A DNA stretch of 33,580 bases from Vermamoeba vermiformis. Its lineage: Eukaryota. The DNA lies in contig JBEWZL010000029.1 of NCBI GenBank assembly GCA_045837725.1, forward strand, positions 1 to 33,580. Direction: 5' to 3'. Shown here piece after piece: positions 18,206 through 33,580 of this stretch (position 1 is its first letter; every line of letters starts with the position of its first letter). A model generated the notes under the pieces. That model was not told where the DNA came from. It ran no database searches and saw only the letters and a program-made list of their open reading frames with translations. A program made the position numbers and the translations under genes.

Positions 18206-20380
18206 TTAATCCTTATGTAATATTACTGTGCCTTCAACATCGTATTCTTCGCCAGGTCGTTCAATTAGCGGCAAGAAATCTTCGAATTTTACCGTCGCAG
18301 ATCCGATCAGTTTTCTGTCGCCTCCGCCAGCCATATTATAAACGCTTATTTCAAGACTTCCAAAGTCAAATTGCGCTACTTGAGCAAAATTGAGGGGATA
18401 TTGAAATTTCTGATCGAAGGTTGGGTTCTGCGTTGATTTTTTGGTCTCCGTACATTTGCGACTTCTCAAGTACGACAACGCCACGCTAAAAATAGGCTAT
18501 TTTTAGTGCTTATTACCAAATAAGGAAAAGACATACCATGGGTCGCAGTGGCCAGTGGCTTGTAAATCTTTGGCTTCTTTGACGTGAATTGTAATGCTGC
18601 CGCTCCACGGACCTTTCGGCGGAATATATTTGAATCTGCAAATATACATCAGTACACTATACCAAATAAGGAAATAGACTATGTATGGCGTACCCTAATC
18701 TCAACTCGCCAGTTTTGGGCTTTGAATTGTGTTCCATTGGAGGTCGTTTTTTGGCGGCAATTGTAACTTCATCAGTCGGCATTAATTCTTGCAAGAATGG
18801 TCCGAGACCAGTAGGATTCTATATAAGGAAATATGTTATATTAGGCAATAATCATATTAGACCAGTATTGATTATCAGCTTTGAATCGGATCCGGGATCT
18901 GACACCTGTCACAATAAGGCTTTTGCTTCACAGCCGTCCCGTTGAATAAATTTGATAAAATTTTGATCGTGTTTGTACAAATAAGGAAAGTTGTTTTCGA
19001 ATACTTTGCAGTTGTTCTTTGGAGTTAAAAATAACTTACGTGATAAAACAGTCGCAACTTCAACAGACCAGCAGCATTGACTTGCTTATCGATTTCGTTA
19101 AATATGAACCAGTGCTCGACTTTAGTATTGAATGGAATTGAATTCAGCGGAATATTCACGAATGCCTAAATTGGGCAAAAAAAACAAATAATATATTAGC
19201 GCGTGCATAAAATATCAGTAGATTCTTTTAAGTACCTTCTTAGACGATGATTTTTTGTCCCATAAATTAATTCTAATACCTTGTACTTCAGTATCGACTA
19301 GCGGGCTAAAAATAAAAAAAATTAGTTTTGTTTTTGGATCCGGATCTCGCGTTAAAAAATTTCAAGGTTAGGAGATAGGACTTACATAGTGAACTCATCG
19401 TTCTTATAAACCGCGTCACTCTCTTTTGCTGAAGCAGTATAATCAGATTTTCCTATTTTCTGACGACCCACAACGTCTTTGCAACAATAGATCTCGAAGA
19501 ACGGATAAATAATTGAATCTGTGCAAGGGATTGCCTAATTAGGACGCGCTGTTCATGAAAGAATAGTAGTTATACTTACCTCGCGTATAATCATTGAGAT
19601 TATGGCTCTCCAAAACTGTAATTAAAAATATCTAATTAATTTACGCCTTGACACGTGTCAAACTTTGGATCAGATCGAATTCGAAGCAGAATTTAACATG
19701 TGATAGTAAATTCGTATGTTCGTACTAACGTTTACCTGATACTCGCAAATAAGGCTTATCTTTCTGCGAAATATTTAAAAATGACAAAACTCGTGGATCT
19801 TTGCTAATTGTGTCGTATTTCGTTATTTCTGTCAAAAATTCGTTGAATTTATCGACTCTCTTTTGTACTACGGCCTAGTAAATATTATACGAATCAATAT
19901 TGCGAGCAAAGTAAAAGGTTTAATTTAAACTTACCGCATCTAGCTTGCCAATAGCTTTCTTCTCCGGAAACTCAAACTCTCGAATATTTTTATGTGCTTT
20001 TCTGAGCTATTTTAAATAAATTAAGTTAAATTAAGGCGAAGAATCTTTTTTAGAAAATTAATTGGAAATTTATTGTCGGGATCTGCAGCAGAAATAGAAC
20101 ACTTACGTCGTCATATAGCTCTCCGAAGTCATTGTATCTCTTATTTACATAAATTAAGTCGCAATTGTCTTGACTGTCATAAGGGACCACTCTAATTTTA
20201 TACGTCTTGACATCCACGCAAAAAAAATAAATTAGATAATTGTCTAATGAATAAAATAATATGTAATATCATTAAATATATCATAATTAAGTATTAAATC
20301 CTTACGGTGTAATGATCTCCGCCGATCTTGACATTAAACGTTGAGACAACGGATGCTTGATATGTGAAGTTCTGTTCCAT
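18206..20380 (-). CDS. PX domain + tandem C2 domain protein
   Basis: About 11 exons. PX motifs TYKIRV, NKRYNDFGELY, FPEKKAIG, VVQKRVDKFNEFL; C2A motifs RINLWDK, AFVNIPLNSI, EHWF; linker TGELRLGFKYIP; C2B motifs ITIHVKEAKDL, CDPCV, KKSTQNPTFDQKF, LEISVYN, LIGSATV. Exact 3' end uncertain. Confidence 0.8.
19648..19661. repeat. Single intronic TTGACACGTGTCAA palindrome
   Basis: Perfect 14-bp palindrome in an intron of the PX-C2-C2 gene. Confidence 0.8.
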
Positions 20381-20690
20381 GTCAAATTATAACAATATGT
20401 ATACTTAATATATACTAGACTGTTGCTCTATTGATTTGCAACAATAGATGTTTCTAGAGGCCGTCAGAATATTTTTTTAGTACGGCCGAAGCTCGAAAAT
20501 TCCATGTGCTTGTGATACTTTCCACGTGCTGTTGCAAATTTACAGGTGCATGGGTCATACTTGGTAGTAGTATTATTTTTTTTTACTTTGATAGCAATAC
20601 ACAGGAGGTGGATCGAGATATTTTTAGATTCGATCGAGCAAAAATACAAGAATAAGGCTGAATTGATTATATATGTTGTATTCGTAGTAT

Positions 20691-21091
20691 TTACCAGCCT
20701 TTCATTGATTCAGCCATACTATAAGCCATAGACATTGACTCCATAAAAGTTTTAAACTCGTCAAAGCTGATCACGCCATTTTGATCCTCGTCAATTTGCT
20801 TAAATACTTCTGTTACCACTTCAGCACCATCAGCACCATCTTCATCTTGCGATCCTTGTGATTCAAGGATTTTTTCAAGGTCAGTAAAATTTTTTAAACT
20901 CATCCAAATCCAAAGATTGATTTCCATCAGAATCGTACGATAAAAATAGCTGCTTTACATTTGCACCAGGATTACGCAATACGGCAGTCAAAAACGCTTT
21001 AAATCCTTCTGCTGCTTTATCACTCTGTAAGAAAAAAAATAATTCAAAATTAAATCAACAAAAAATCCGATTGAAAAGTCGGCCTTACCAT
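20691..21091 (-). pseudogene. Two-EF-hand calcium-binding gene with a frameshift (pseudogene or sequencing error)
   Basis: ATG-only exon 21089-21091, intron 21026-21088. Exon 2 reads ...SYDSDGNQSLDLDEFKKFY* (stop ~20881-20883); the paralog-like continuation (TDLEKIL...DEDQNGVISFDEF) is in another frame. Confidence 0.7.
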
Positions 21092-21368
21092 TATGATAGT
21101 ATCTATTATATGGTGCTACCGTTCGATCGTAAAAATTAATGCGTGGAAGAGCAAAAAACTGAACTTAAATCGAAACCACGTGCAACCGTTAAAAAAATCG
21201 AAAACCTGCAATTCCAATTCAAAAAACCCATCAAATATACTAAAAATACAAATTATATTATAACATTAAAGTAGAGTACAAGCTACAAAGCTAATTAGGA
21301 ATGCAGTACTGGAATTGCAAATTTTTTCAACGCTCTCAGTGCTATTCGAATGCCGTAAATATGACTAA

Positions 21369-21764
21369 TTACCAATCATTCATCATCGAGGCCATATTAT
21401 AAGCCATAGACATGGTCGTAATAAAGGCTTTGAACTCGTCGTAAGTAATCGTACCGCTGTTGTCCTGATCTACTTGCTTAAAGACGTCTCCAGCGACGTC
21501 AGTACTCTTTATATTATCTTCATCTTTCCAACCTTGTTTATCCAATATTTTTTCGAGATCTGCGTAGAATTTTCTGAACTCTTCTAAATCCAACGATTGG
21601 TTTCCATCAGAGTCGTACGAGAGGAATAATTTCTTGACATTAGAGCCGGGCTTTTTCAATACAGCAGTTAGCAGCGACTTTCCTTCGTTTCCTCCGAGTT
21701 TGTTGCCCTGCACATCCAAGATCAATCAACCGCTAGAAAAACATTATTTAGACCGCCTTACCAT
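21369..21764 (-). CDS. Two-EF-hand calcium-binding protein with probable N-myristoylation site
   Basis: ATG-only exon 21762-21764, intron 21708-21761. Starts MGNKLG; EF loops DSDGNQSLDLEE and DQDNSGTITYDE. Confidence 0.88.
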
Positions 21765-22087
21765 CCCTATTGTTGTATCCGTTTAGTTAGATAATTATAC
21801 TAAACGACTTTTCAACAACATTGTGGTACATTTTTCTTTTTGATGTTCTTCAATGAACGTACCACGTGCCTCCAATTACGCTCTTCAAATGAAAGGCCGG
21901 GTACTGCACCACGGGCCTAATACCTGAAAAAACAAACGGCATTCAATGATAGGGTATACATATAAATGCTTTAAATGAAATGGTTGAAACTGGAATTTCG
22001 GATCTCTTCTTCTATTACAAAAATACTTAAACGAAAATTGAAACGTTTAATTATAAGTGTATAAGTATACTAGTATATATAACATGA

Positions 22088-24653
22088 TTATTCGACTTTA
22101 GCCTTAGTCTCAGGCAACATAATAAAGAAGATGATCAACATGATGACACCAACGCCGCCAAATCCGAAAAATACTCCAGCTTGACCAACAGCCTTAACAA
22201 CAGCTATAATAAAACAAAATGCGATTATTAAGGGCTATATAATAATGGATATTATTGACGTACTAGGGAAGAGCAAGCCAATCAACAAAGTGAAAGTCCA
22301 TTGCAAGACGTTAGCGTAAGAGCTGCCGTAGTCACGTGTTTCACTGAAACATAAAATAAAGTTAATAAAATGTCGTAAGAAATACTTCAGTCATATTTTG
22401 ACGAAGACTTACGCAGGGAAAATTTCGTTGATGATGATCCAGAACAAAATGCCGGGACCAGCAGCAAAGGCCGCAATGAAGACAGCAATGGCGACGAGTG
22501 ACAAGTATCCCCTAGATTAGTGTGCGTATTAATAAGGGTCTGCTGTGATAGTGCAAATGACACGTGTCAACTGAAGCCTTGGATCAGGAGACGACAAGAA
22601 GTTGACACGTGTAAACTGGAGTTTTGTATCAAAAACTAAAGTTTGACACGTGTCAAAGAAGTGACTCTAGTCACTGTAATTTGGAGCATATGACACGTGT
22701 CAAACTGAAATAGAACGGAGGTGTTGTGTTCGTTATTAATAACTTACTTGACTTCCTCGTTTGCTATGACGTTCGTTTGAGCAAATCCAACGACAAGAAG
22801 TGACACCGTCAACACGGAGACAGTGAACAACTGCAAAGATATTATCACGATTAGTACTCGAGAATACTATACAGATAAATTGATTATGCTTACCCAAATA
22901 GGACGACGACCGAGTCTGTCAACCAAGTTGGACAGCACAGCCACGAGTGTGATGAAGAAGTTCCAGCCACCAACGATCTATTTTGAGGAAAGTAAAGTGA
23001 GTTATTGTAATAAGCGAATGACTATTTTTCCAAATTTGGAAGTGCTTACGATGGTGAGGATCAACGGATCTTGTTTAATTCCCGAAGCTTGCAAAATTGA
23101 CGGGGCGTAGAGAATGATGGCGTTGATACCTGTCAAGCATAACATGTCAAAATGAGGTCTCTACGATTGAAACCGCGTGGGTTATTTGCCACGTGTCATG
23201 AAGTTAAAATAACAAGCTGTTGTAAGAATGAGACTTTTGACAACTTGACACGTGTCACATTGAGACTTCCACGGATAATTTTCATGAAACTATACTAGGC
23301 CTGACAGCCCTAACGACTTGGCACGTGTTAATCAACTCTCAATCTTACCTGTCATTTGCAAAGTGATGGACAAACAGGTGGTAATGAACAACGTCGGCAA
23401 TGACTCGCGAGAGCACAAACCAGCAATACCGGTCTTGCCCGAAGCAGTGTGTTGAAGGTTAAGGCCTTCTTCGCCAGAGAATGAAGGGTCAGTCAACAAG
23501 GGTTGTCGGTCTTTCTTTTCTTTCAAGCGGATCCACGATTGCGATTCGCGCATGGACATTGCGACGAGAAATCCGAACAAGCCCGGAATTCCTCCCATTC
23601 CAAACATCAATCTCCAGCTAAGGCCCTACAGTCTCATATTAAATATACTATATGCGGTCATAATAATCATTTACTAAGAGTACTTACGGCGTTGACTTCG
23701 GTTACCATGAAATATCCAAAAACGTAAGAAATCAAAATACCAAATGTAATAGCGAGCTAAAAATAGCATAAGGGTTATTACCAATACAACGTTATTATAC
23801 AGAAGTATTTAATATAGTTACCTGGAAGAAGCTGCCCAAAAATCCTCGCTTTTCGGCGGGAGCGGATTCAGACACATACATCGGGCATACGACGCTAGCC
23901 CAACCGACGGCTATTAAAATATGGTTAATTAAGAGTATGCTGATAATATTTGCAGTAAAGATATTAAATAGGACTGTTTCTTACCTGCTCCGAGAACGAC
24001 TCTCAAAAGGCATAATAAAACGTAATTAGGCGAGAAAGCCAATGCGGTGTTTGTACCAATAGATACGATAGTCCAAATAAGCATTAACTACATATGAAAT
24101 CGTTAATAAGGTCCATTTGCAATACGAAATAAGGAATAAAGTTTTGAAATGTCAATTCAAAAAATGCGAATTGGTTTCATCATTGGTAAATAATTAAAAA
24201 ATACGTGTATTTTAGCTAAAAAGGATTATTTTTGAAGTACATACCCGTTTTCGACCAAGAGCGTCAGCGATCGCACCGCCTGAAAGTGATCCGATCATAG
24301 TGCCCAACAAAAAGGCGCTAGTCAAAATTCCTTGCTATAGTAATATTATTTTAGTATTTTAAGTTGCAAAAGTAGCGAATCTAACGTACCTGGAAGTCGT
24401 CTAAAGTAAAAATTTGAACCATAATGCTTAAAGCATAGGCAATAATTCCTACATAATAAGAGCGTTAATATATTGAATGCGGCTAATCAATTAATAATTT
24501 TCGCCTCTAAATGCTCGTTTCAGCGTGCGAGATCGTGATCAAAATCTTTGGTATTTTTATTTACGCAATCATACCGAGGTTATAACCAAAGAACAAGCCA
24601 CCTGATATGCTAACCAAGGCTAAGAAGCCCGGTGACGGATTTTGAGACGACAT
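22088..24653 (-). CDS. MFS sugar porter family transporter
   Basis: About 14 exons. Motifs GGLFFGYNLG, ADALGRKR, PMYVSESAP..RGFLGSFFQL, WRLMFG, LQMTGINAIILY, VDRLGRRP, WIIINEIFP, PETK. Confidence 0.92.
22558..22702. repeat. Intronic array of four TGACACGTGTCA palindromes
   Basis: Copies start at 22558, 22603 (1 mismatch), 22644 and 22691; period 41-47 bp with non-identical spacers. Confidence 0.85.
23187..23330. repeat. Intronic cluster of three TGACACGTGTCA-type palindromes
   Basis: TGCCACGTGTCA at 23187, TGACACGTGTCA at 23246, TGGCACGTGTTA at 23319, all in one sugar-porter intron. Confidence 0.75.
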
Positions 24654-25121
24654 CCTGTTCTGTTGTGGTTGATCGAACAAAAATTTGAACTAACTGAGCG
24701 TTTAACCACCGATTCCATTATATTTATACATTTTTAGTGAACAGGTCGTGCCTCACGCGAGACATTGCCCTGATTGAATCACAGAAGCTTCCACAAGGTT
24801 CTCCCTGGCTTCTCCCCAGCTTCTCCTGGTCTAAAAATCACATTTGGAAGCTCAACGGCCACAAGAAGTTGTGAAAACTTAGTTACGTGGTCATGATAGC
24901 TCACTATTGTCGTTTATTATTATTATCGCTGCATTTTTTGCGTTCATTTCTTTGAGCATCCACCGCCGATTGCTTATTCTCTATGACAACCACAATCACC
25001 ATATTATTAACACCACCATTTTAATTAATGGTATCCAGCTGAGCGACAATTGACCAAGAACGGGCGATCGCGATCTGCCTGTCGACTACCATATTTTTAT
25101 TTTTATGTGCGTGAATGAACT

Positions 25122-26788
25122 TTATTTTCTGTAAAGAGGTATATTCTCCCAATAATACTGCGGTACTTTGCGACTGACATTAATGCGTTTTTGCATGCTC
25201 GTGTACAGTGCACACATCGCTGCGAATTCTTCATCGGCTAGATTTTCCTTCACTTCTGAGAGCTTGAATACATAGCGCGATAAGAAGAACGAAATATCGT
25301 ACATAACATCTGCATTTAGAGCGTTCAACTGCAGATCTTCCGTCCAGTTGTGTGGATCAAGCGCTGAAAGGACGAGATCTCCGCAACATTCGATCGTATT
25401 CGTCTTTTCGTTTAACTTAAAACGAAAGTCAATAAAAATAGTTGTGATCGATGCAAGATTCGTTCAACAATTCCAAATAAGGAAAAATGGATAAGGATCG
25501 TGCGCGAGATGTGACTTGTTTTCGAATACTTACGGATATATAATGAATTTTTGTGTAGTACCCGAAGTCTATGAAGAATATTACGGACTTGTTCTCATCG
25601 ATATATTTTTTTCTAACCGCGAACGATGGTTCATAGGTATGAGTGAACTTGACGTTCAACAGGTCGTAGTAACCTTCAAAATCATCGTCGCGTTCAGGAT
25701 ACTTTTGGACTCTAAGATTTTGGACTCTAAGATCATCCAAAATTTCGCACGCTAATAACATAATCTAGTTAGTTTCAGATCTCGGGATCTCGGTACGAAT
25801 TGTTTTTGTAACGAACTAAATTGATATTTTTGGGATCTAAGATTCAAAATTATTTCTTAATTAAACCAAATATTAACGGTAAGAAAGAGCTTACATTCTT
25901 CTTTGGACTTGATCTCGGCTTCCCGAATGAGAACCATCTCCGAGAATTCATCAAAGTCGAGGAATGATAAAGCGTCCGAATTGACTCGTATTCTTTCGAG
26001 GACAATGTACGCTTCACTAGTAAACGTCCTTTGGGCAAAAAAATGTTCGAGACCCGTGTTGAGTAAGACTTGATCTTCAAAGGTTAGATCTACGGCTTGG
26101 CTAATCGGCCTATAAGTCTAAATTTAGTATCGCAATAATAAATATATGGGAATTAATCGAAATTGACAAATTAAACCGTTAATAAAGGGCCCTTTAGTCG
26201 TACTTGGTGAGTTGGCTGTTTAGGTTCAAATTGGCAGTTTGCGCATCGTATTTCTTCTGTATGTAGTCTCTTCGAATCCCAATCAACAATTTTTTAAGTG
26301 CTTGTGGCTCGATAGTATGGGTCTTGCTGAGTTTTTCAGTGAATCCTAATCGCGTCCAAAATGAGGTGGAATGGACAATGGCGTTGTGTCTGAAAATTGC
26401 AAATTTTAATTTTTAAATTAGTTATTAATGTTAGAATAAATATTTGGTTGTTTAATACGGGAAGGAACGAAGGAAACATTGAGTGTCAATTAAAATGTCA
26501 TTAAAAAATACTTCGAAAAATGTTTAAAATTAATGAGTACCTTCTGGATACTTTTGCAATGCTAAGAACCGTCTCTGGTCGTCGTATTAAATATTTTAAA
26601 ATATTCTCGACCAGTTCTGTGATGTCAAATACTTGCGAGCCCACTTCTTGCTTCAGATCCGGTTGTTTTCCTTTATTTTTCTTCTTTTCCTTCTTGTCCT
26701 TCTTGTGCTTTTTATCTTTCGATATTTTCGCTTTTTTATTTGATTCTTTCAAATAATCGTCATCTTCTCTTTCTCTCTTTCGTGACAT
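25122..26788 (-). CDS. F-box-like protein with Lys-rich N-terminus, tandem paralog A
   Basis: 5 exons. MSRKRERE...KKDKKEKKK (NLS-like), then VFDITELVENILKYL...LSIAKVSRRHNAIVHSTSFW (F-box-like); ends KVPQYYWENIPLYRK*. Confidence 0.72.
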
Positions 26789-26934
26789 GTTTGGACTGCC
26801 CTCGGCAAAAACTTTCGAAATTAGAGCAAAAAATAATACGGCATTACTCAACCGAGCTATTTTCGGCTCTAGTAAAGTTGACACTGTCAACCAAAGCAGA
26901 TCAAAAATGACGCGGATTAAGCACGATGAATTCT

Positions 26935-28524
26935 TTATTTTTTATAAAGAGGAATATCCTTCCAATAATATTGCTTTACTTTTCGGTCCACTCTTATTTC
27001 ACGGCCCCCCGACAAACAAGGCAATTCTTTCTTTGCTAGCTTTTCATCAATGTTTTTCAGCTTGAAGATAGACGTCGATAAGAATACTGAAATGGTGCGC
27101 AGGACGTCTTGGGTCAACATAGTGACGGACCGATTTTCCTTCCGGTTGTGCGGATCTAGCGCTGATAGGATAAGATCTCCGCAACATTCGATCATATTGC
27201 TCTTTTCGTTAACCTATAATAACATCGGTATTAAGAAAACAACACTGAATCAATCTTCGCGAAGATCGTTTAAAATTTGATCCAAATTAGGAAATGGAGA
27301 AAATCTGAATACTTACGGAGATATAACGGACCGCCGGCATATACCCATGATAAATAATAAATACCACGAACTTATTCTCATCGATAAACTTTTTTCTTAT
27401 CTCAAAAAAAGTGTCATCCTCGGAACCACATACCTCCATTAATATATGATAGCCTTCGAAATCATCGTCCGATTTCGGATAATTCCGTCGTTTGAAACTA
27501 TTTGCAAGATATTCACTCGCTGAGCAAAAGAAAGTTAGTCAAATTGTCGGATCTCAAAAATCTCTAAAGAGAATTACGTAATATATTGTGATGGTCCATT
27601 GAAGAAACAAGTATTATTTTCCTTATCTAGCTTATGAAATCTACGACCTTACTTTCTTCTTTGCGCTTGATCTCAGATTCGGGCATGAAAAGCATCTCCA
27701 AGAACTCATCCATACGATAATAAGAATCCATCTTTGAATTGGATCTTAATCTATCGATGGCAATATAAGCTTCGCTAGTATAAGTTCTTTGAGCCAGGAA
27801 ATGTTCGAGATGAGACCTGACGAGAAGTTCGTCGTCGAAGGACAGATCCAGTGAGTTTCCGATCGGCCTAATGTTAATTAATATACAAGCTGCATGTAAA
27901 TATCGCCAAATTTTCATTCATGAATGGAAAATTACGTACTTGGCACGTTTGCGGTTAGCGTTCAAGATCGCTGTTTGCTTGGCGTATTTCTTCTCGACGT
28001 AATCGTGGCGAATACCAAGCAAAAGTTTTACTAATACTGCTGGCTCGATAGTATCGGTATCACTGAGCTTTTCAGTGAATCCTAATCGCGTCCAAAACGA
28101 TTTGGAATGTACGATGGCGTTGTGTCTGAAAAATGCCAAGGAATTATAAATTAGTTATTTATATTTTATTAATATATATCTCTTGATTATTTAATAAGGG
28201 TACGAACGAGACGTTGAATGTCAATAAAAATGTCAATTAAAAAATACTCAGAAAAATGCTTAAAATTAATGAGTACCTTCTGGATACTTTTGCAATGCTA
28301 AGAACTGTTTCTGGTCGTCGTATTAAATATTTTAAAATATTCTCGACCAGTTCTGTGATGTCAAATACTTGCGAGCCCACTTCTTGCTTCAGATCCGCTT
28401 GTTTTCCTTTATTTTTCTTCTTTTCCTTCTTGTCCTTCTTGTGCTTTTTATCTTTTGATATCTTCGCTTTTTTATTCGAGTCTTTCAAGTACTCGTCGTC
28501 TTCTCTTTCTCTCTTTCGTGACAT
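26935..28524 (-). CDS. F-box-like protein with Lys-rich N-terminus, tandem paralog B
   Basis: Same exon structure as paralog A with a near-identical exon 1; ends KVKQYYWKDIPLYKK*. Confidence 0.72.
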
Positions 28525-28848
28525 GTTTTGGACTGCTGTGGAACTGGACTGATTTTCTTTTTTTCAACGAAGGAATCATTTTCCTCAACGAATTACACCG
28601 CCTAGTAGTGAAACAATAAGGGGATGTCCTGCGTTTATTACTAATATTTCTGGTAGGGAGGTCCCGGATGGGCGGTATGGATCCAACGCTCAACTGTTGC
28701 GTATTTAAATAATGTATTAGCCGGTTTTTTCCGTGTGGATGTCTACCGTAATAAGAACAGTAATTAAACTATCGCACGCTTTTCGGTTTATAGCTTACAT
28801 TGATTTGCAATTTTCACGTTCCAAACAAAGTTTCATATCCAGACGCTT

Positions 28849-30288
28849 TTAATATATATGACCGCTGTTTCCACTCGAGGACAAATCGCCGTTATCGACA
28901 TCGAGTTCATAGTACTCGCCTTGATTGCTCGTCCAGTTGATGAGATCGAATGTTTGGTTGTTGTGAAGTCGCCACACTGAGATCTTGCCGAATGTCAACG
29001 GCGTGTCTGGCTGACACACTGCTGGTGGTCTCTTCGACAAGAAGAAGTACGCGACATGCTCTGTAATGCCGTTAGTAATCTCCGAAGCTCATAGAGTAAC
29101 TTGAAGGCTACTTACTGTCGTGCCACTTGGGTTGCACATTATCAATCCTTGTAGCGACTTTGCCGATGCCTTGTTGAATCATAACGGCTGTTTGTTCGTC
29201 GCAGGCAATGCCTTTAACAACTTGGACTGCAAAGGCTATTAGTTTGATAACACAGGACGATAAACGTACCGTCAGGATAGTCAGTCCAGATCCGTGCTAA
29301 GAAAGCCATTGAACGACCCATACGATCGCGTTGAGCGAAGTGCGTGTCAGTAATGATGTTCTTTAGTATAGGGATGTCCAAGAAGCCTCTGCCAAAGCTC
29401 ATTGTAGCGTCATACGGGTTCTTCAGAACTACCGATGACTCCGCAGACGTTCCGTTTGCTGCAGTGTAGATAAACTATAGACTTAATTAGTATAGCAAAT
29501 GTGGCTTAATAATATTGTCCTTGCCTCTCCGAGAACAGCCATGCCTGCTGATGTGCCACCAATAGTCGTGCCATTGTTAATGCGCATTTGCAAGGACTGC
29601 TGAACACGTGTGTCTTTCCAAATGGTCCAATAATCGTATTGATCTCCTCCGGCAATGAATAAGCTGGCTGCTGAGAGGATGATATCGTTGACAAAATCAT
29701 TGTTTGATCCTTCAATACTGGTGATTATCAATGTTGAGACAGTTCGTGCTCCAAAGGCATGGACATACTGAACAAAATTAGTTTGAATATCAATTAAGCT
29801 CGGTACCTACTTCATTGTACGCATCTGTACCGAATGCTCTAATAATTACAAAGTGTCCGTAGTGTCCTTGTTCTACCATCCACTGCACAAATTTAATTTG
29901 TCAAAAAAAAGCGTCAAATGGCAAACTGTAAGACTAACCTTGAATGCGGGATCATCGTCCGTGCCTCCTCCAGCAAGCACGAATCCACCGATATTTGATT
30001 GTTTGACGCGAGGAGATAGCAGATCGGAATTATCGCAATTGCCAAGACAATACCACTGCATCGAAATTTTTAATTTTTATCCGATTTGAATGTACTAATT
30101 ATCTTCTATAATACTATTATCATCCAGAAATTTTCCAATTAATTGTAAAATCAATAGATCAAAAAATGATTTTGACTTGCTTCCCAACCATCGCCTTGTT
30201 TATGCGCAGATTGTGGTCTGGCCATCGTCGCATGCAGCACGCATAGCGTAAGAACGATGAGAGATGTCGCGGTCCTGTGCATTGACAT
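28849..30288 (-). CDS. Secreted cyanophycinase-like serine peptidase (family S51)
   Basis: About 7 exons. Signal-peptide-like TSLIVLTLCVLHATMA; motifs GGFVLAGGG, LFIAGGDQ, IGGTSAGMAV (catalytic Ser), ITDTHFAQRDRMGR, GIACDEQTA. Confidence 0.88.
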
Positions 30289-30418
30289 AATTGGACTAAC
30301 CCTGGTTTTGTTTCCTTGTCAAGTTGAGTTTGACATTTACCTACGTAATTCCAACTTGGTATCAGATTTTTATTTACATCATCTTATTAAACATTAAACA
30401 CTGCAATATCAGAGTATA

Positions 30419-33169
30419 ATGGAAAACAATGAAGTGCGGATATTGCGTCGGCAAAAAGTACGGTATTGGCGGTATCGTGAGTGGGTCGGTTCAGAACTGA
30501 CTTTGCACAGCAATGGAAAATACGAAATAGAAGGAGAATTACCGGTAATTAAATTAATAAACAATAAAGAGCCGTTGGCAATTCCAACCAGAAATAATTG
30601 ATGAATTTAAAAATATCAGCTTGATTTAATCATAATTAAATAGAACGACATTACTTACGAACACACCACCACAAGACCGAAATATGGCAATTTTAATTAC
30701 GTGTTTGTAATTAACACGAGAGAAGAAAATGAATTTTGGTCTGGCCCTCGCTTTGCCGTTAAAGATAACGAAGTATGTAGATTATTATTATTAAATATGC
30801 TTTATTAGAAATATGATGCTTAGCTTACTTGACGCTAATTCAACTTCAGAGCTGTGAACGTTGGATGCAACTTCTAAATCTGGTCAATCAACGAAAGAAA
30901 GCGGAAAAAGTTCATAACCATCCACTTAGTTTTATTAAACATAAAGAAAGCAAGTTGACGTGCTCAATTTGCAAGTTGGCAAAGGATGGCGTTAAAGGAA
31001 CAGGTACGGGTCTTTAATTTTTTTCTAATCTTGCTTATCCTTGCTGATTACAGAACAATGGACTTGTGAATTTTGCAACTATTTTGAGTGCAATTCGTGC
31101 CACGATAAGATCAATAACGGCGAGTACTTCGTCAAGAGTTCGAGCCATCCACATCCGCTAATGAGAATGCATCAAAGCGACGATCGATGGTTAAGTGTGG
31201 GCAATAGAGGACCTTATAAAGTACGTCTAATAACATTCATATCAATACATTAAATGGAAACAAGTCTGCGTTGACCAACTTTTGGCAAAGTACATCCGCT
31301 TACAAATTTCATTTTCAGTGCAAAGTATGCAACACCACTACTGATAGCGAAGCTTCTCGTTATCATTGCGTTGAATGTGGAGACTACGATGAGTGTCCCA
31401 AGTGCATTGCGAAACAAAGTGCCGGTGGGCCAGCGCAAACATTGGACGATCTCAAAGTTAATCTCGGACATTTAACCCACGTGCTCAAGCCTTCAGAAAG
31501 TCCGGACCTTGGAAAACTCAAAGTAGATCTTGGAAATCTGACTAATATTATCCCGACACTTACCACAGAAGTTTATTCTTTGGACATGAAGGAATGCGGA
31601 ATTGGCCGAAAATATCCGAAGATTTCCCACATGAGCGTCACGACGTCAAAATATTGGGACTTGATGGCAATTGAAAAAGTGTTCCCGACGACTGCTTACT
31701 TCGAAGTGACGTTTTACAAGAAGGAAGGACTGCTCGGGGTCGGTATTGGCAATCAGATCCACCGTCACACTCAAATGCTGGGCTATCAGCAAAACAGTTT
31801 CGGAGTTCTATCCGACGGCACCGTAAGTACCACGCAATCTTGGGTTCGGAAATTTCATTACCAAAGTGACACGTGTCATTCAAAGTGTCACCTACAAAAA
31901 GTTCAATTAATGCTCAGATTTCTTACTGACGTTCCTCAGATATCGTACAATCACAAGAGAAATGCCATTAGTGTTCCAGGAATTAAATTCAGCAAGAACG
32001 ATGTCATCGGCTTGGGCGTCATGTACGACACGTTCAATCAACGACGTTTGTTTTTTACCAAAAATGGTCAATACGTCGGTAAGTACTGATCGCTGAACGC
32101 CAACGCAAATGTACTAATTAGGAAACATAGGGTCGTTCGATCAAATGCTGCATCGTGGCATGGATTGTTATCCAGGTGTTTCCTTTGCAGGCGATTCAAA
32201 GGCAATATTTTCAGTGAATTTCAAAGGACCGTTCAAGTTCGATTTGAAATCTCTGCCTAATAGCTTGACCGAGGAAAAGAAAGATTGGATCTCATCTTTG
32301 CCGAACGAACTTCGAGAAAAAATTGGATCTTACGCCTCTTACGATATTCACGCTTTAACTTGGCGATTAGTACGGCACATTTTTTTACCATATTTGGTAA
32401 TAACTAACGTTATTCTTAGGTGAGCAAGTCGTTCAATTCTGCGATGACTTCGAATACTGTTTGGCGCGCGTTGTTCATGAAAGAATGGCCCAGACAAAAT
32501 CCAAACTTGAAGATCAAATCTTGGATGAATTTTTACAAGAAAAGAATTCAAGCTTTTAAAGGAAAGACGGCTACAAGAACCACTCTTGATTATGGCAAGG
32601 TCGAGAGTAAAAAACACGCCATTGGTACGTCAAATTGCCAGTTTTCCTTCAAATTTACTAATTCTATCTAGATAATTGTGATTTTGAATTTGAATGTCCG
32701 ATGCTTTGGGAGAATTTGACGAGCACCAGTGACGGTGGAGATTTTTCACGAGAACGATTTTGCAACAAGTGTCAGAAGTCAGTTTACAAAGGTACGTTGA
32801 CATTTGCTATGACATCTGTGACACGTGTCAAACGCAAGCCCATCGACTTTGCTCGTACAAATTTCTGTCGGATCCTGGTTGACACGTGTCAAAATTTTTT
32901 GGTTGACACGTGTCAACTTAACCCCCTACAAAAAGTGTTTTTTTTTACTTTTGACACGTGTTTCCTAACAATCGCTAATTTTTGATGACTTAGTGACGGA
33001 CAAAGCAACAGCTGCTAAATACACGGAGATGGGCCGGTGCGTCAGTTTCATCGAATTGACGAAGACTGCAGCTCCGACAGCAAGACCTATGATGATGGGC
33101 AAAGTTGCACGTGTTGAACGAGCTGCGTACAATGACCGAGATCCGTTTGAGTCATCTTCCACTAACTGA
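30419..33169 (+). CDS. PH-like / Cys-His zinc finger x2 / SPRY / F-box / Cys-rich multidomain protein
   Basis: About 10 exons. Zinc fingers HNHPL..CSIC..CEFCNYFECNSC and HPHPL..CKVC..YHCVECGDYDECPKC; SPRY motifs AYFEVT, GVGIG, SFGVLSDG, FSKNDVIGLG, LFFTKNGQYVG; F-box ISSLPNELREKI..VSKSF..VWRALF; C-terminal FECPMLWENL..RFCNKCQKSVY..GRCVSF. Stop at 33167-33169. Confidence 0.82.
32819..32961. repeat. Intronic array of four TGACACGTGTCA palindromes
   Basis: Copies start at 32819, 32880, 32904 and 32952 (partial) in the last intron of the SPRY/F-box gene. A further single copy lies at 31867. Confidence 0.85.
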
Positions 33170-33330
33170 TGTGGGCGAGCTGATGTGGCATTAAACACGC
33201 GTTCTACTTCAATAGAGAATAAACGTACTGGTAATTTGAAAGAAAAATTTACATTTCCCGGGATCTCGTTTTTGTAATCCAACAAGTTTATCCTAATAAT
33301 ACATTGACAATTACGCTTATCACGTGCGCG

Positions 33331-33580
33331 CTAGTTGAGTACAGTTTTAATCTCGTTGGGAACAGCATCACCTCGTTTGATCAAAGTGACTGAGTCTGAT
33401 GCTGGCAAACGAGTCGAGTGACCACTGATCTCTTCATCTGGATACCCAAAGCGAACAACAATCAGTGGCATCTCGTTGTCTTTGATTTGTGGAACAATGT
33501 GACGCAACAGATCCAGCTGTTCGAAGAAGTCAGGTGTTTCTTCTGTCACTTCTGATCGAATCTTTTCACCGAATGCTGAT
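33331..33580 (-). CDS. 3' end of a nitroreductase-like protein (partial, runs off the window)
   Basis: Frame is open to the window edge. PLIVVRFGYPDEEISGHSTRLP resembles the C-terminal 'RxGY...RxP' FMN-nitroreductase motif. Confidence 0.5.
   Translation of the reverse strand, partial: SAFGEKIRSEVTEETPDFFEQLDLLRHIVPQIKDNEMPLIVVRFGYPDEEISGHSTRLPASDSVTLIKRGDAVPNEIKTVLN

Follow-up and report, generated by a model that had tools for sequence, protein, structure and literature searches.

MITE superfamilies of the Stowaway/Tourist type have in common their terminal repeats, their size and a preference for genes and introns, and their internal sequence differs between families. Bacterial REPs are imperfect palindromes of 20-40 nt, confined to prokaryotes and tied to RAYT transposases. 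The hexamer CACGTG is the E-box/G-box of bHLH and bZIP proteins, including yeast CDEI, and such sites are as a rule degenerate and found in promoters. The introner elements of Micromonas, Aureococcus and Amoebophrya are described, in the available part of the source, as repeated, hairpin-forming, intron-associated sequences thought to spread like non-autonomous transposons (PMC7789003). The same part of that source gives the Amoebophrya introners inverted repeats of 8-20 nt, and presents an introner as the entire intron, with its repeats at the intron ends, overlapping the splice sites (PMC7789003).

The window analysed here, which is the whole stretch of 33,580 nucleotides of Vermamoeba vermiformis contig JBEWZL010000029.1, is intron-rich and about 38% G+C; its donors are GTAAGT/GTACGT and its branch sites CTAAT-like. 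The palindrome TGACACGTGTCA is found nine times as an exact match (starts 19649, 22558, 22644, 22691, 23246, 31867, 32819, 32880 and 32904), against 0.00 in 100 dinucleotide shuffles. When up to two mismatches are allowed there are 15 sites, against 1.06 expected and 7 in the highest single shuffle; those beyond the exact matches are 22603, 23187, 23319, 32952, 18900 (TGACACCTGTCA) and 23124, the last of which overlaps the 3' splice site of intron B (see below) and is probably due to chance. The initial annotation had listed about 13 copies, all of which were recovered (the nine exact ones and 22603, 23187, 23319 and 32952), and its view that the motif exceeds background holds for the window. 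The extension of copies to 14-16 bp that it described is real as well, with TTGACACGTGTCAA at 19648 and 32879, TTTGACACGTGTCAAA at 22642 and GTTGACACGTGTCAAC at 32902.

Across the 12 positions the information content is 1.1-2.4 bits; it falls to 0.6 at the adjoining T/A and to about 0.0-0.4 farther out. The repeated unit is the 12-14 bp palindrome only, and flanks and spacers have no significant homology. Flanks of the single copies did not rise above the shuffle null (maximum 7.0, null mean 6.4; in a second comparison 24, equal to the null 95th percentile), nor did longer sequences shared between copies, such as TTGGATCAG following 19649 and 22558. Substitutions are present in 5 of 14 family copies, one or two in each and at 7 of 168 positions overall; every one of them disrupts the dyad, with no compensating change, as would be expected of decaying copies rather than of a selected helix. 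CACGTG is kept in 13 of the 15 sites, and nine of the 13 CACGTG-type copies agree at all 12 bp. The CpG observed/expected ratio of 1.24 indicates that the central CpG of the palindrome is not under methylation-driven decay. All copies lie between 18.9 and 33.0 kb and none in 1-18.9 kb, despite the intron-rich genes there, a clustering compatible with local spread. As a separate and merely suggestive observation, GGATC occurs five times within 30 nt of palindrome copies (1.1 expected).

The copies lie in introns of three unrelated genes, encoding an MFS sugar porter, a ZZ/SPRY-domain protein and a C2-domain protein, and none is in a promoter, in agreement with the initial annotation. The MFS gene (22091..24653, minus strand), assigned by tblastn of P0033, Pfam Sugar_tr and RNA joints, has 12 introns of approximately 125, 55, 157, 74, 65, 62, 219, 73, 63, 236, 69 and 60 nt. 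Its intron A (22512..22747, minus strand; 236 nt, GTAAGT..CTAG) contains four copies and is supported by the X7 RNA joint 22510->22747, while its intron B (23130..23348, minus strand; 219 nt, GTAAGA..ACAG) contains three and is supported by the X7 RNA joint 23126->23346. P0033, a metatranscriptome protein of 94% identity, aligns colinearly across both introns. Intron C of the ZZ/SPRY-domain gene (32792..32993, plus strand; 202 nt, GTACGT..TTAG) has four copies and an X7 joint, 32789->32992, in two contigs. In the C2-domain gene, intron D (about 19616-19735, minus strand; 120 nt) has a single exact copy (19649..19660, within a 14-bp palindrome at 19648-19661), and raw RNA reads skip it at 19612->19736 (4 reads in X21, 18 in X23). 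Intron E of the ZZ/SPRY gene (31823-31939, plus strand; 117 nt), predicted from its GTAAGT..CAG ends and from reading frames open over 201 and 49 codons, carries an exact solo copy (31867..31878) followed 7 nt on by a half copy (GTGTCAC). Intron F of the C2-domain gene (18819-19039, minus strand; 221 nt), known by prediction only, would hold the one-mismatch copy from the search at up to two mismatches (18900..18911; centre G to C).

Four motif clusters are therefore inside spliced-out introns with RNA support, of 120-236 nt, and a fifth intron is predicted. The host introns are, as first suggested, longer than typical, since the motif-free introns of these genes are mostly 55-74 nt, although the transporter gene also has long introns of 125 and 157 nt that lack the motif. 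The proposal that the palindrome is confined to introns stands in so far as all copies in the window are intronic; it is statistically weak, with 5-6 independent loci, and is not established because introns make up about 58% of the non-coding DNA here, so that five of five gives p ~0.07, the intron and intergenic shares being hand estimates and the codon-usage coding score too weak for a full gene model.

The copies in introns A, B and C form modules of almost the same length, each without strand assignment. Module A (22558..22702, 145 bp) consists of the copies at 22558, 22603 (one mismatch), 22644 and 22691, and is separated by 45 nt from the 5' and by 46 nt from the 3' splice site of its intron. 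Its spacers of 33, 29 and 35 nt are mutually unrelated, which bears out the earlier description of distinct spacers of about 30 nt. Module B (23187..23330, 144 bp) comprises copies at 23187 (one mismatch), 23246 (exact) and 23319 (two mismatches), with spacers of 47 and 61 nt, and module C (32819..32963, 145 bp) comprises copies at 32819, 32880 and 32904 (exact) and 32952 (two mismatches), with spacers of 49, 12 and 36 nt. The regular spacing that had been claimed was not found, the start-to-start distances (45, 41 and 47 bp in A; 59 and 73 bp in B; 61, 24 and 48 bp in C) ranging irregularly from 24 to 73 bp. Despite this irregularity the modules span 145, 144 and 145 bp with four, three and four copies, and their outer sites are 132-133 bp apart. 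Sums within 1 bp of each other are given by 2 of 560 regroupings of the eight spacings and by about 2 in 10,000 random draws, figures that belong to a post hoc observation. Subtraction of the module leaves 91, 75 and 57 nt of introns A, B and C, near the 55-74 nt of the motif-free introns and as expected from one insertion into a normal intron.

The modules have no detectable internal homology to one another: in each of six global alignments the score was reached by at least 9% of shuffles. The splice sites are located 18-57 nt outside the modules, in canonical GT..AG introns with their own signals, and the flanks between splice site and module show no homology among introns A, B and C beyond shuffle nulls. 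Identity with introners was rejected on these grounds, given that the element supplies no splice sites and that these flanks lack homology; the modules resemble guests in introns older than themselves. A tandem repeat or minisatellite was likewise rejected, TRF at a minimum score of 30 having reported nothing at 22558-22702, 23187-23330 or 32819-32963 and the spacers being dissimilar, as was a CRISPR-like arrangement, in view of spacers that vary from 12 to 61 nt. A search of the whole window with Rfam covariance models at the gathering threshold gave 0 matches, and a known RNA family, e.g., an intron-hosted snoRNA, was rejected accordingly. One tRNA was predicted in the window, unrelated to the palindromes.

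Tentatively, and at rather less than even probability, we read the palindromes as the marks of MITE-like modules that entered ordinary introns and later collapsed by recombination between copies. On this reading a DNA-binding protein with sequence specificity, in the simplest case a transposase, would recognise the palindrome, and the module would be a small, non-autonomous unit of about 145 bp bounded on both sides by a palindrome (133 bp between centres), with one or two further palindromes inside and an otherwise unconstrained interior. Such modules may have landed in the middle of ordinary introns of 55-90 nt, where they would be harmless because the splice signals lie outside them. Recombination or slippage between identical palindromes would then delete units and point mutations would erode copies, leaving shortened arrays and solo palindromes, and strong RNA hairpins would be a by-product. 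What we infer is that modules insert as a unit, that a protein binds the palindrome and that arrays collapse to solo copies. Among the three options offered by the initial annotation (clustered binding sites, a short mobile palindrome, or hairpins affecting splicing), a copied or inserted element, sequence-specific at the DNA level, is favoured because of the sharp 12-14 bp boundary, the unrelated flanks, the 144-145 bp span, the variation of an array and the copies elsewhere, and the splicing hairpins were left unsupported.

All three modules carry the same sequence at both ends of a short element (<~800 bp) with 0-2 mismatches, as do MITEs, and shared internal sequence among copies, a second MITE characteristic, is absent within the window. 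For a terminal repeat to be a perfect palindrome in its own right is unusual, which counts against the MITE-like reading. No consistent direct repeat that might represent a target-site duplication borders the modules or the single copies, where there is only the T/A extension of the palindrome, and no transposase domain was detected in the 73 ORFs scanned (12 + 61 of 153 ORFs of at least 62 aa). To our knowledge the modules have no autonomous partner. The introns with a solo copy remain long (120, 117 and 221 nt) even when 12 bp are subtracted, and collapse to a solo copy thus fails to explain their length. Finally, a fixed outer spacing with free spacers and a conserved motif is also what a selected protein-DNA architecture is expected to produce.

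Structural variation was seen in the X1 DNA contigs, which carry the same species label. In these, array A is 45 nt shorter and has one palindrome fewer, with a joint at 22576->22633 and 11 nt between; no empty site was seen, the X1 DNA giving this shortened array only. In other DNA contigs the match is limited to about 18 nt at a palindrome, after which the sequence is unrelated, and one of these contigs contains a pair of palindromes at a distance of 35 bp; copies of the palindrome thus exist at other loci. A metagenome scan for palindrome pairs returned at least 120 loci with a G+C content of 19-77%, a mixture of tandem satellites, a family of 42/44-bp repeats from a single assembly, and pairs in presumably bacterial DNA of high G+C. 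Among the matches listed none is from the present organism, and matches to the window extend over only ~22-46 nt around palindromes; the metagenome pairs give no direct information on the present genome. The same pattern was found at 0 loci in the viral contigs scanned. In the literature, the 12-mer TGACACGTGTCA was encountered only inside Ebola virus primers, no use of the 10-mer GACACGTGTC concerning introns or repeats appeared in the accessible portions of the publications, and keyword searches on intronic palindromes returned no description of this motif.

The form of array A with one unit fewer in X1 DNA also fits a mutational process that involves neither element nor function, in which palindromes stall replication and seed template switching or slippage, so that arrays grow and shrink and capture local sequence. 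The window has 37 perfect palindromes of at least 12 nt, compared with 10.6 in block shuffles (maximum 19), and 12 palindromes of at least 14 nt belong neither to the family nor to alternating AT, several of them in predicted or verified introns. Local capture is suggested by spacer S1, which combined with the first bases of copy 22603 matches the adjacent exon (22790-22806) at 17 of 18 nt, by spacer S3, which repeats 10 nt of the same exon site, and by the 12-mer CCTACAAAAAGT, common to introns E and C just downstream of a copy. However, such local matches are few and individually near chance for a 33-kb window: 3 of 15 spacers/flanks beat all 60 distant controls and one more beat 57 of 60, in a tally that excludes an AT-rich low-complexity match. 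Moreover, this process accounts neither for the recurrence of one 12-mer at unlinked loci with unrelated flanks nor for the equal spans of 144-145 bp, and we regard it as unlikely.

The constancy of the modules can alternatively be ascribed to homotypic clusters of high-affinity sites for a host dimeric protein of the bZIP or bHLH-Zip type, arranged in nucleosome-sized modules of 145 bp that would have a regulatory or chromatin-architectural role within gene bodies. The dyad symmetry, the CACGTG core and the sharp information boundaries at 12-14 bp are consistent with this, as are the unrelated spacers and flanks and the outer palindromes held at 132-133 bp while spacers are free. Six of the seven substitutions in the 14 family copies fall outside the central CACGTG (p only ~0.06), the central CpG is free of methylation-driven decay, and the published uses of GACACGTGTC, in the portions of those sources that were available, are mostly as plant G-box/ABRE promoter elements. 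On the other hand, nine identical 12-mers among 13 exceed the uniformity of binding sites that arise by point mutation, so that a copying mechanism would be needed in any case. No copy is in a promoter, the arrays being in mid or 3' introns of functionally unrelated genes, and the shorter array A of X1 DNA indicates that the 145-bp span is not strictly kept. We know of no protein that binds the palindrome, and consider host-protein sites possible but doubtful. That the modules are functional chromatin elements, with dyad sites one nucleosome-core length apart and extra sites near the middle, is decidedly unlikely; a candidate host dimer or tetramer would then clamp a single nucleosome or mark a region in gene bodies.

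Palindromes might also act in the pre-mRNA, their pairing bringing the 5' splice site and the branch point together or otherwise regulating splicing, for which the zipper stems of long yeast introns are the model. Introns A and C fold stably (-66.9 kcal/mol, z -6.8, and -53.1 kcal/mol, z -3.9), 0 of 200 shuffles being as stable, and their helices are made by palindrome pairs. Identical palindromes must pair in any event, and the stability of the fold by itself is therefore uninformative. In intron B the fold is no more stable than in shuffles (z -1.5; 16 of 200 reach its stability), and the solo-copy introns D and E are unstructured (z -0.5 and 0.0). Folding brings the branch point no closer to the 5' splice site than it does in shuffled introns, the folded path length being 11 in intron A (22.4 in shuffles, 18% of which are as short), 17 in intron B (14.0) and 1 in intron C (15.4; 17% as short). 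All variant copies break the pairing with zero compensatory changes, and long introns without the motif occur in the same MFS gene. A splicing function is very improbable.

If the modules are mobile, they would constitute an unusually minimal element that retains nothing but a 12-14 bp palindrome and a fixed length, and would offer a direct view of 60-nt introns becoming 200-nt introns in a compact genome, which bears on intron growth and on the origin of introner-like elements. If instead a host protein holds the sites at nucleosome-length spacing, they would be a new sequence-defined chromatin element inside genes and, should the chromatin-element reading be true, part of a dispersed architectural system not described for microbial eukaryotes. 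On either reading, one 12-mer provides a simple handle for genome-wide and population study.

Among the described systems, the present palindromes resemble REP/BIME sequences as short, clustered and genome-dispersed palindromes with variable linkers in transcribed non-coding DNA, and in the dedicated mobilising protein that is proposed for them. They differ in being eukaryotic and in that no RAYT-like enzyme was found here; we know of none that would serve them. With G-box/E-box sites they share dyad symmetry, a palindromic core of ACGT/CACGTG and an information content that extends over about 12 bp, but the 12-mers here are near-identical, intronic and arranged in 145-bp blocks. As far as the available part of the introner account allows comparison, the likeness is that of a repeated hairpin-forming sequence in introns, whereas the present introns have their splice signals 18-57 nt beyond the module borders, and their flanks are unrepeated. 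Unlike MITEs, the modules lack a target-site duplication, their end sequence is a perfect palindrome repeated inside, and each module in the window has internal sequence of its own. They are like MITEs in their small fixed size (~145 bp here), the same short end sequence, the absence of coding capacity, interiors that vary as between MITE families, hairpin potential, frequent occurrence in introns and structural polymorphism.

The 12-mer TGACACGTGTCA is present in nine exact copies in the 33,580 bp of the window and in none of the dinucleotide shuffles; with up to two mismatches allowed, 15 sites are found where 1.06 would be expected. These include all 13 positions listed in the initial annotation, together with two more, at 18900 (TGACACCTGTCA) and at 23124 (TGATACCTGTCA), of which the latter, partly coinciding with an intron's 3' splice site, is probably a chance match. 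The extension to 14–16 bp, claimed at the same time, was borne out, as several copies are perfect palindromes of that length. Across the 13 CACGTG-type copies, the 12 core positions each hold 1.1–2.4 bits of information; the content is 0.6 bits for the flanking T/A and drops to near zero (at most 0.4 bits) beyond, which indicates that the repeated unit is the palindrome alone. When the flanks of different copies were compared, the outward-oriented, anchored alignments were no better than shuffled (maximum 7.0; null mean 6.4), and the maximum of the local alignments (24) fell exactly at the null's 95th percentile. There is no depletion of CpG (observed/expected 1.24). Substitutions, one or two per copy, affect five of the 14 family copies and 7 of 168 positions in total; each of them disrupts the dyad symmetry, with no compensating change. 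The copies all lie within 18.9–33.0 kb, and the first 18.9 kb has none, though intron-rich genes (e.g., RhoGEF, M20 peptidase) are present there. The pentamer GGATC was observed five times within 30 nt of palindrome copies (1.1 expected; 18888–18899, 19667, 22581, 32870), and two of the copies are followed, at comparable distances, by GGATCAG.

The window is intron-rich, with about 38% G+C, GTAAGT/GTACGT donors and CTAAT-like branch sites near the acceptor, and the palindromes are hosted by a C2-domain gene, an MFS sugar porter and a ZZ/SPRY gene. Public runs were aligned over 18500–33580, and the intron boundaries were then refined to GT..AG. Spliced contigs of the RNA run X7 skip introns A (22512–22747, 236 nt), B (23130–23348, 219 nt) and C (32792–32993, 202 nt), while intron D (~19616–19735; copy 19649) is skipped by raw RNA reads carrying the same species label (X21, 4 reads; X23, 18 reads). 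Introns E (31823–31939, around copy 31867) and F (18819–19039, around copy 18900) are predicted from splice signals and open frames. The metatranscriptome protein P0033 has 94% identity to one exon of the transporter gene and is colinear with the entire gene, spanning both array-bearing introns. The 12 introns of this gene measure about 125, 55, 157, 74, 65, 62, 219, 73, 63, 236, 69 and 60 nt; thus, the array introns are its longest, in keeping with the initial annotation, which had the host introns as longer than typical, but two others that lack the motif reach 125 and 157 nt. Elsewhere, the window holds two EF-hand genes in tandem (20694–20954 and 21372–21725), a tandem paralogous pair of minus-strand genes with a lysine-rich N-terminus whose family was not recognised (25125–26941 and 26938–28563), and an ARAGORN call of tRNA-Ala with anticodon GGC (30434–30509); such a tRNA is unusual in nuclear genomes of eukaryotes, and the call may be false.

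Because an array would wreck a reading frame, absence from exons is trivial, and the informative contrast is between introns and intergenic DNA. For 18.2–33.6 kb we estimated by hand, from inferred rather than computed annotation, about 3.9 kb of introns and 2.8 kb of intergenic DNA. The proposed confinement to introns stands inasmuch as all five independent clusters in the window are intronic, but relative to intergenic DNA it reaches only p ~0.58^5 = 0.07. One isolated observation also points to introns: in one flank of a further genomic copy (a loose end in a contig of the DNA run X1), a GTAAGT-type donor stands about 20 nt away from the palindrome.

Array A (22558–22702) spans 145 bp with four copies, array B (23187–23330) 144 bp with three, and array C (32819–32963) 145 bp with four. 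The spacing is not regular, contrary to what had been described: start-to-start distances are 45, 41 and 47 bp in A, 59 and 73 bp in B, and 61, 24 and 48 bp in C. Tandem Repeats Finder gave no report at the three arrays, and the whole arrays do not align to one another in either orientation. The equality of span was noticed post hoc, yet it is hard to dismiss: when the eight spacings are regrouped, only 2 of the 560 ways yield three sums that agree to within 1 bp, and for randomly drawn spacings the rate is about 2 in 10,000. Without the block, 91 (A), 75 (B) and 57 nt (C) of intron remain, near the 55–74 nt of ordinary introns here, and the block is centred in introns A (45|145|46) and C (27|145|30). 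A span of 144–145 bp is also the length of nucleosome-core DNA, the copy numbers and spacings of the three arrays differing. The main alternative to a mobile origin is that the arrays are clustered binding sites of a host bZIP/bHLH-type factor, since selection on a protein–DNA architecture would likewise leave the motif and its spacing conserved and the sequence in between free; in its boldest form, the modules would be a nucleosome-length chromatin element. We regard this alternative as rather doubtful.

Helices between palindromes make the folds of introns A and C much more stable than those of their shuffles (z -6.8 and -3.9), and intron B has no such excess stability (z -1.5). Identical palindromes pair of necessity, so fold stability alone says little. 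Whether pairing brings the branch point closer to the 5' splice site was examined by measuring the path between them in minimum-energy structures and comparing it with introns with shuffled interiors. This path is not significantly shorter in intron A (11 versus a mean of 22.4; 18% of shuffles equally short) or in intron C (1 versus 15.4; 17% equally short), and not shorter in intron B (17 versus 14.0). The single-copy introns showed no structure, and Rfam gave no match over the window. Since the path is not shortened and compensatory changes are absent, the data lend no support to an RNA helix under selection. The suggestion that the hairpins act in splicing is very improbable. An AT palindrome, TTATTAATA(A), lies near both ends of intron A (22526–22535 and 22732–22743), and in the predicted fold its copies pair and close the entire intron.

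Perfect palindromes of at least 12 nt number 37 in the window, whereas block shuffles contain 10.6 (maximum 19). Among those of at least 14 nt, twelve are neither family copies nor alternating-AT runs, and many of the extra palindromes lie within verified or predicted introns; unrelated GC-containing 14–16-mers include TCTGATCCGGATCAGA (6491), TAAAGGGCCCTTTA (26183), ATCTTCGCGAAGAT (27253) and AATTACCGGTAATT (30537). The first spacer of array A with the start of the next copy (22591–22607) matches the adjoining transporter exon (22790–22806) at 17 of 18 nt, the third spacer (22656–22665) shares 10 nt with that exon site (22795–22804), and CCTACAAAAAGT is common to introns E and C, directly after a copy. 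These matches, each near chance for a 33-kb window, hint that locally templated copying might have occurred; a purely mutational hairpin or template-switch process as the explanation of the modules seems unlikely. A TGACAC half-site adjoins the spacer matches. Predicted intron F, which belongs to the C2-domain gene, and an intron start in an unrelated gene at 25.5 kb have a 16-mer, TTGTTTTCGAATACTT, exactly in common (18991–19006 and 25516–25531), where by our own estimate about 0.004 matches are expected; it may be a second intron-borne repeat.

Contigs of X1, which carries the same species label, contain a version of array A lacking 45 nt and one palindrome, with a joint 22576->22633 bearing 11 other letters. 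Other X1 contigs match the window over about 18 nt around the palindrome, with unrelated sequence on both sides, and one links the surroundings of 23246 and 22691 via 19 foreign letters, which implies that it stems from a different locus, where two copies lie 35 bp from each other. Thus, the motif is dispersed in that genome, with arrays present elsewhere. According to two X21 reads, intron B of a related strain may begin with GTAAGA, as in the window, and continue with another 10-nt linker and then a perfect palindrome of 16 bp in place of the degenerate copy; being just two, these reads carry little weight.

Tentatively, we propose that the modules are small non-autonomous MITE-like elements, which would land in ordinary introns and subsequently erode and recombine. 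This proposal draws on the sharply bounded dyad motif, the constant length of modules that begin and end with the motif, the unrelated interiors, the normal-sized intron remainders, the uncompensated decay, the structural differences within the species and the copies elsewhere. Counting against it, the modules show no target-site duplication, modules A, B and C have no interior sequence in common, no transposase domain was found in the 73 ORFs scanned and no empty site was seen.

A metagenome scan for two copies 12–42 nt apart returned at least 120 loci; among the matches listed, G+C ranges from 19 to 77%, none is from this organism, and tandem satellites and a 42/44-bp repeat family of one assembly are included. 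In that dispersed family (L006, L014, L016, L018, L027, L032–L035, L046, L047, L058, L069 and other loci), TGACACGTGTCA recurs every 42–44 bp, alternating with a hairpin-forming unit of 30–32 nt (ATGGGGCA..TGCCCCAT); the motif is also used in the repeats of another organism. The viral collection contained no TGACACGTGTCA pair at this distance, and a literature search found no description of the exact motif. The nearest published parallel found is provided by the introners of Amoebophrya (PMC7789003), which carry inverted repeats of 8–20 nt at the intron ends and, unlike the modules here, constitute the entire intron.
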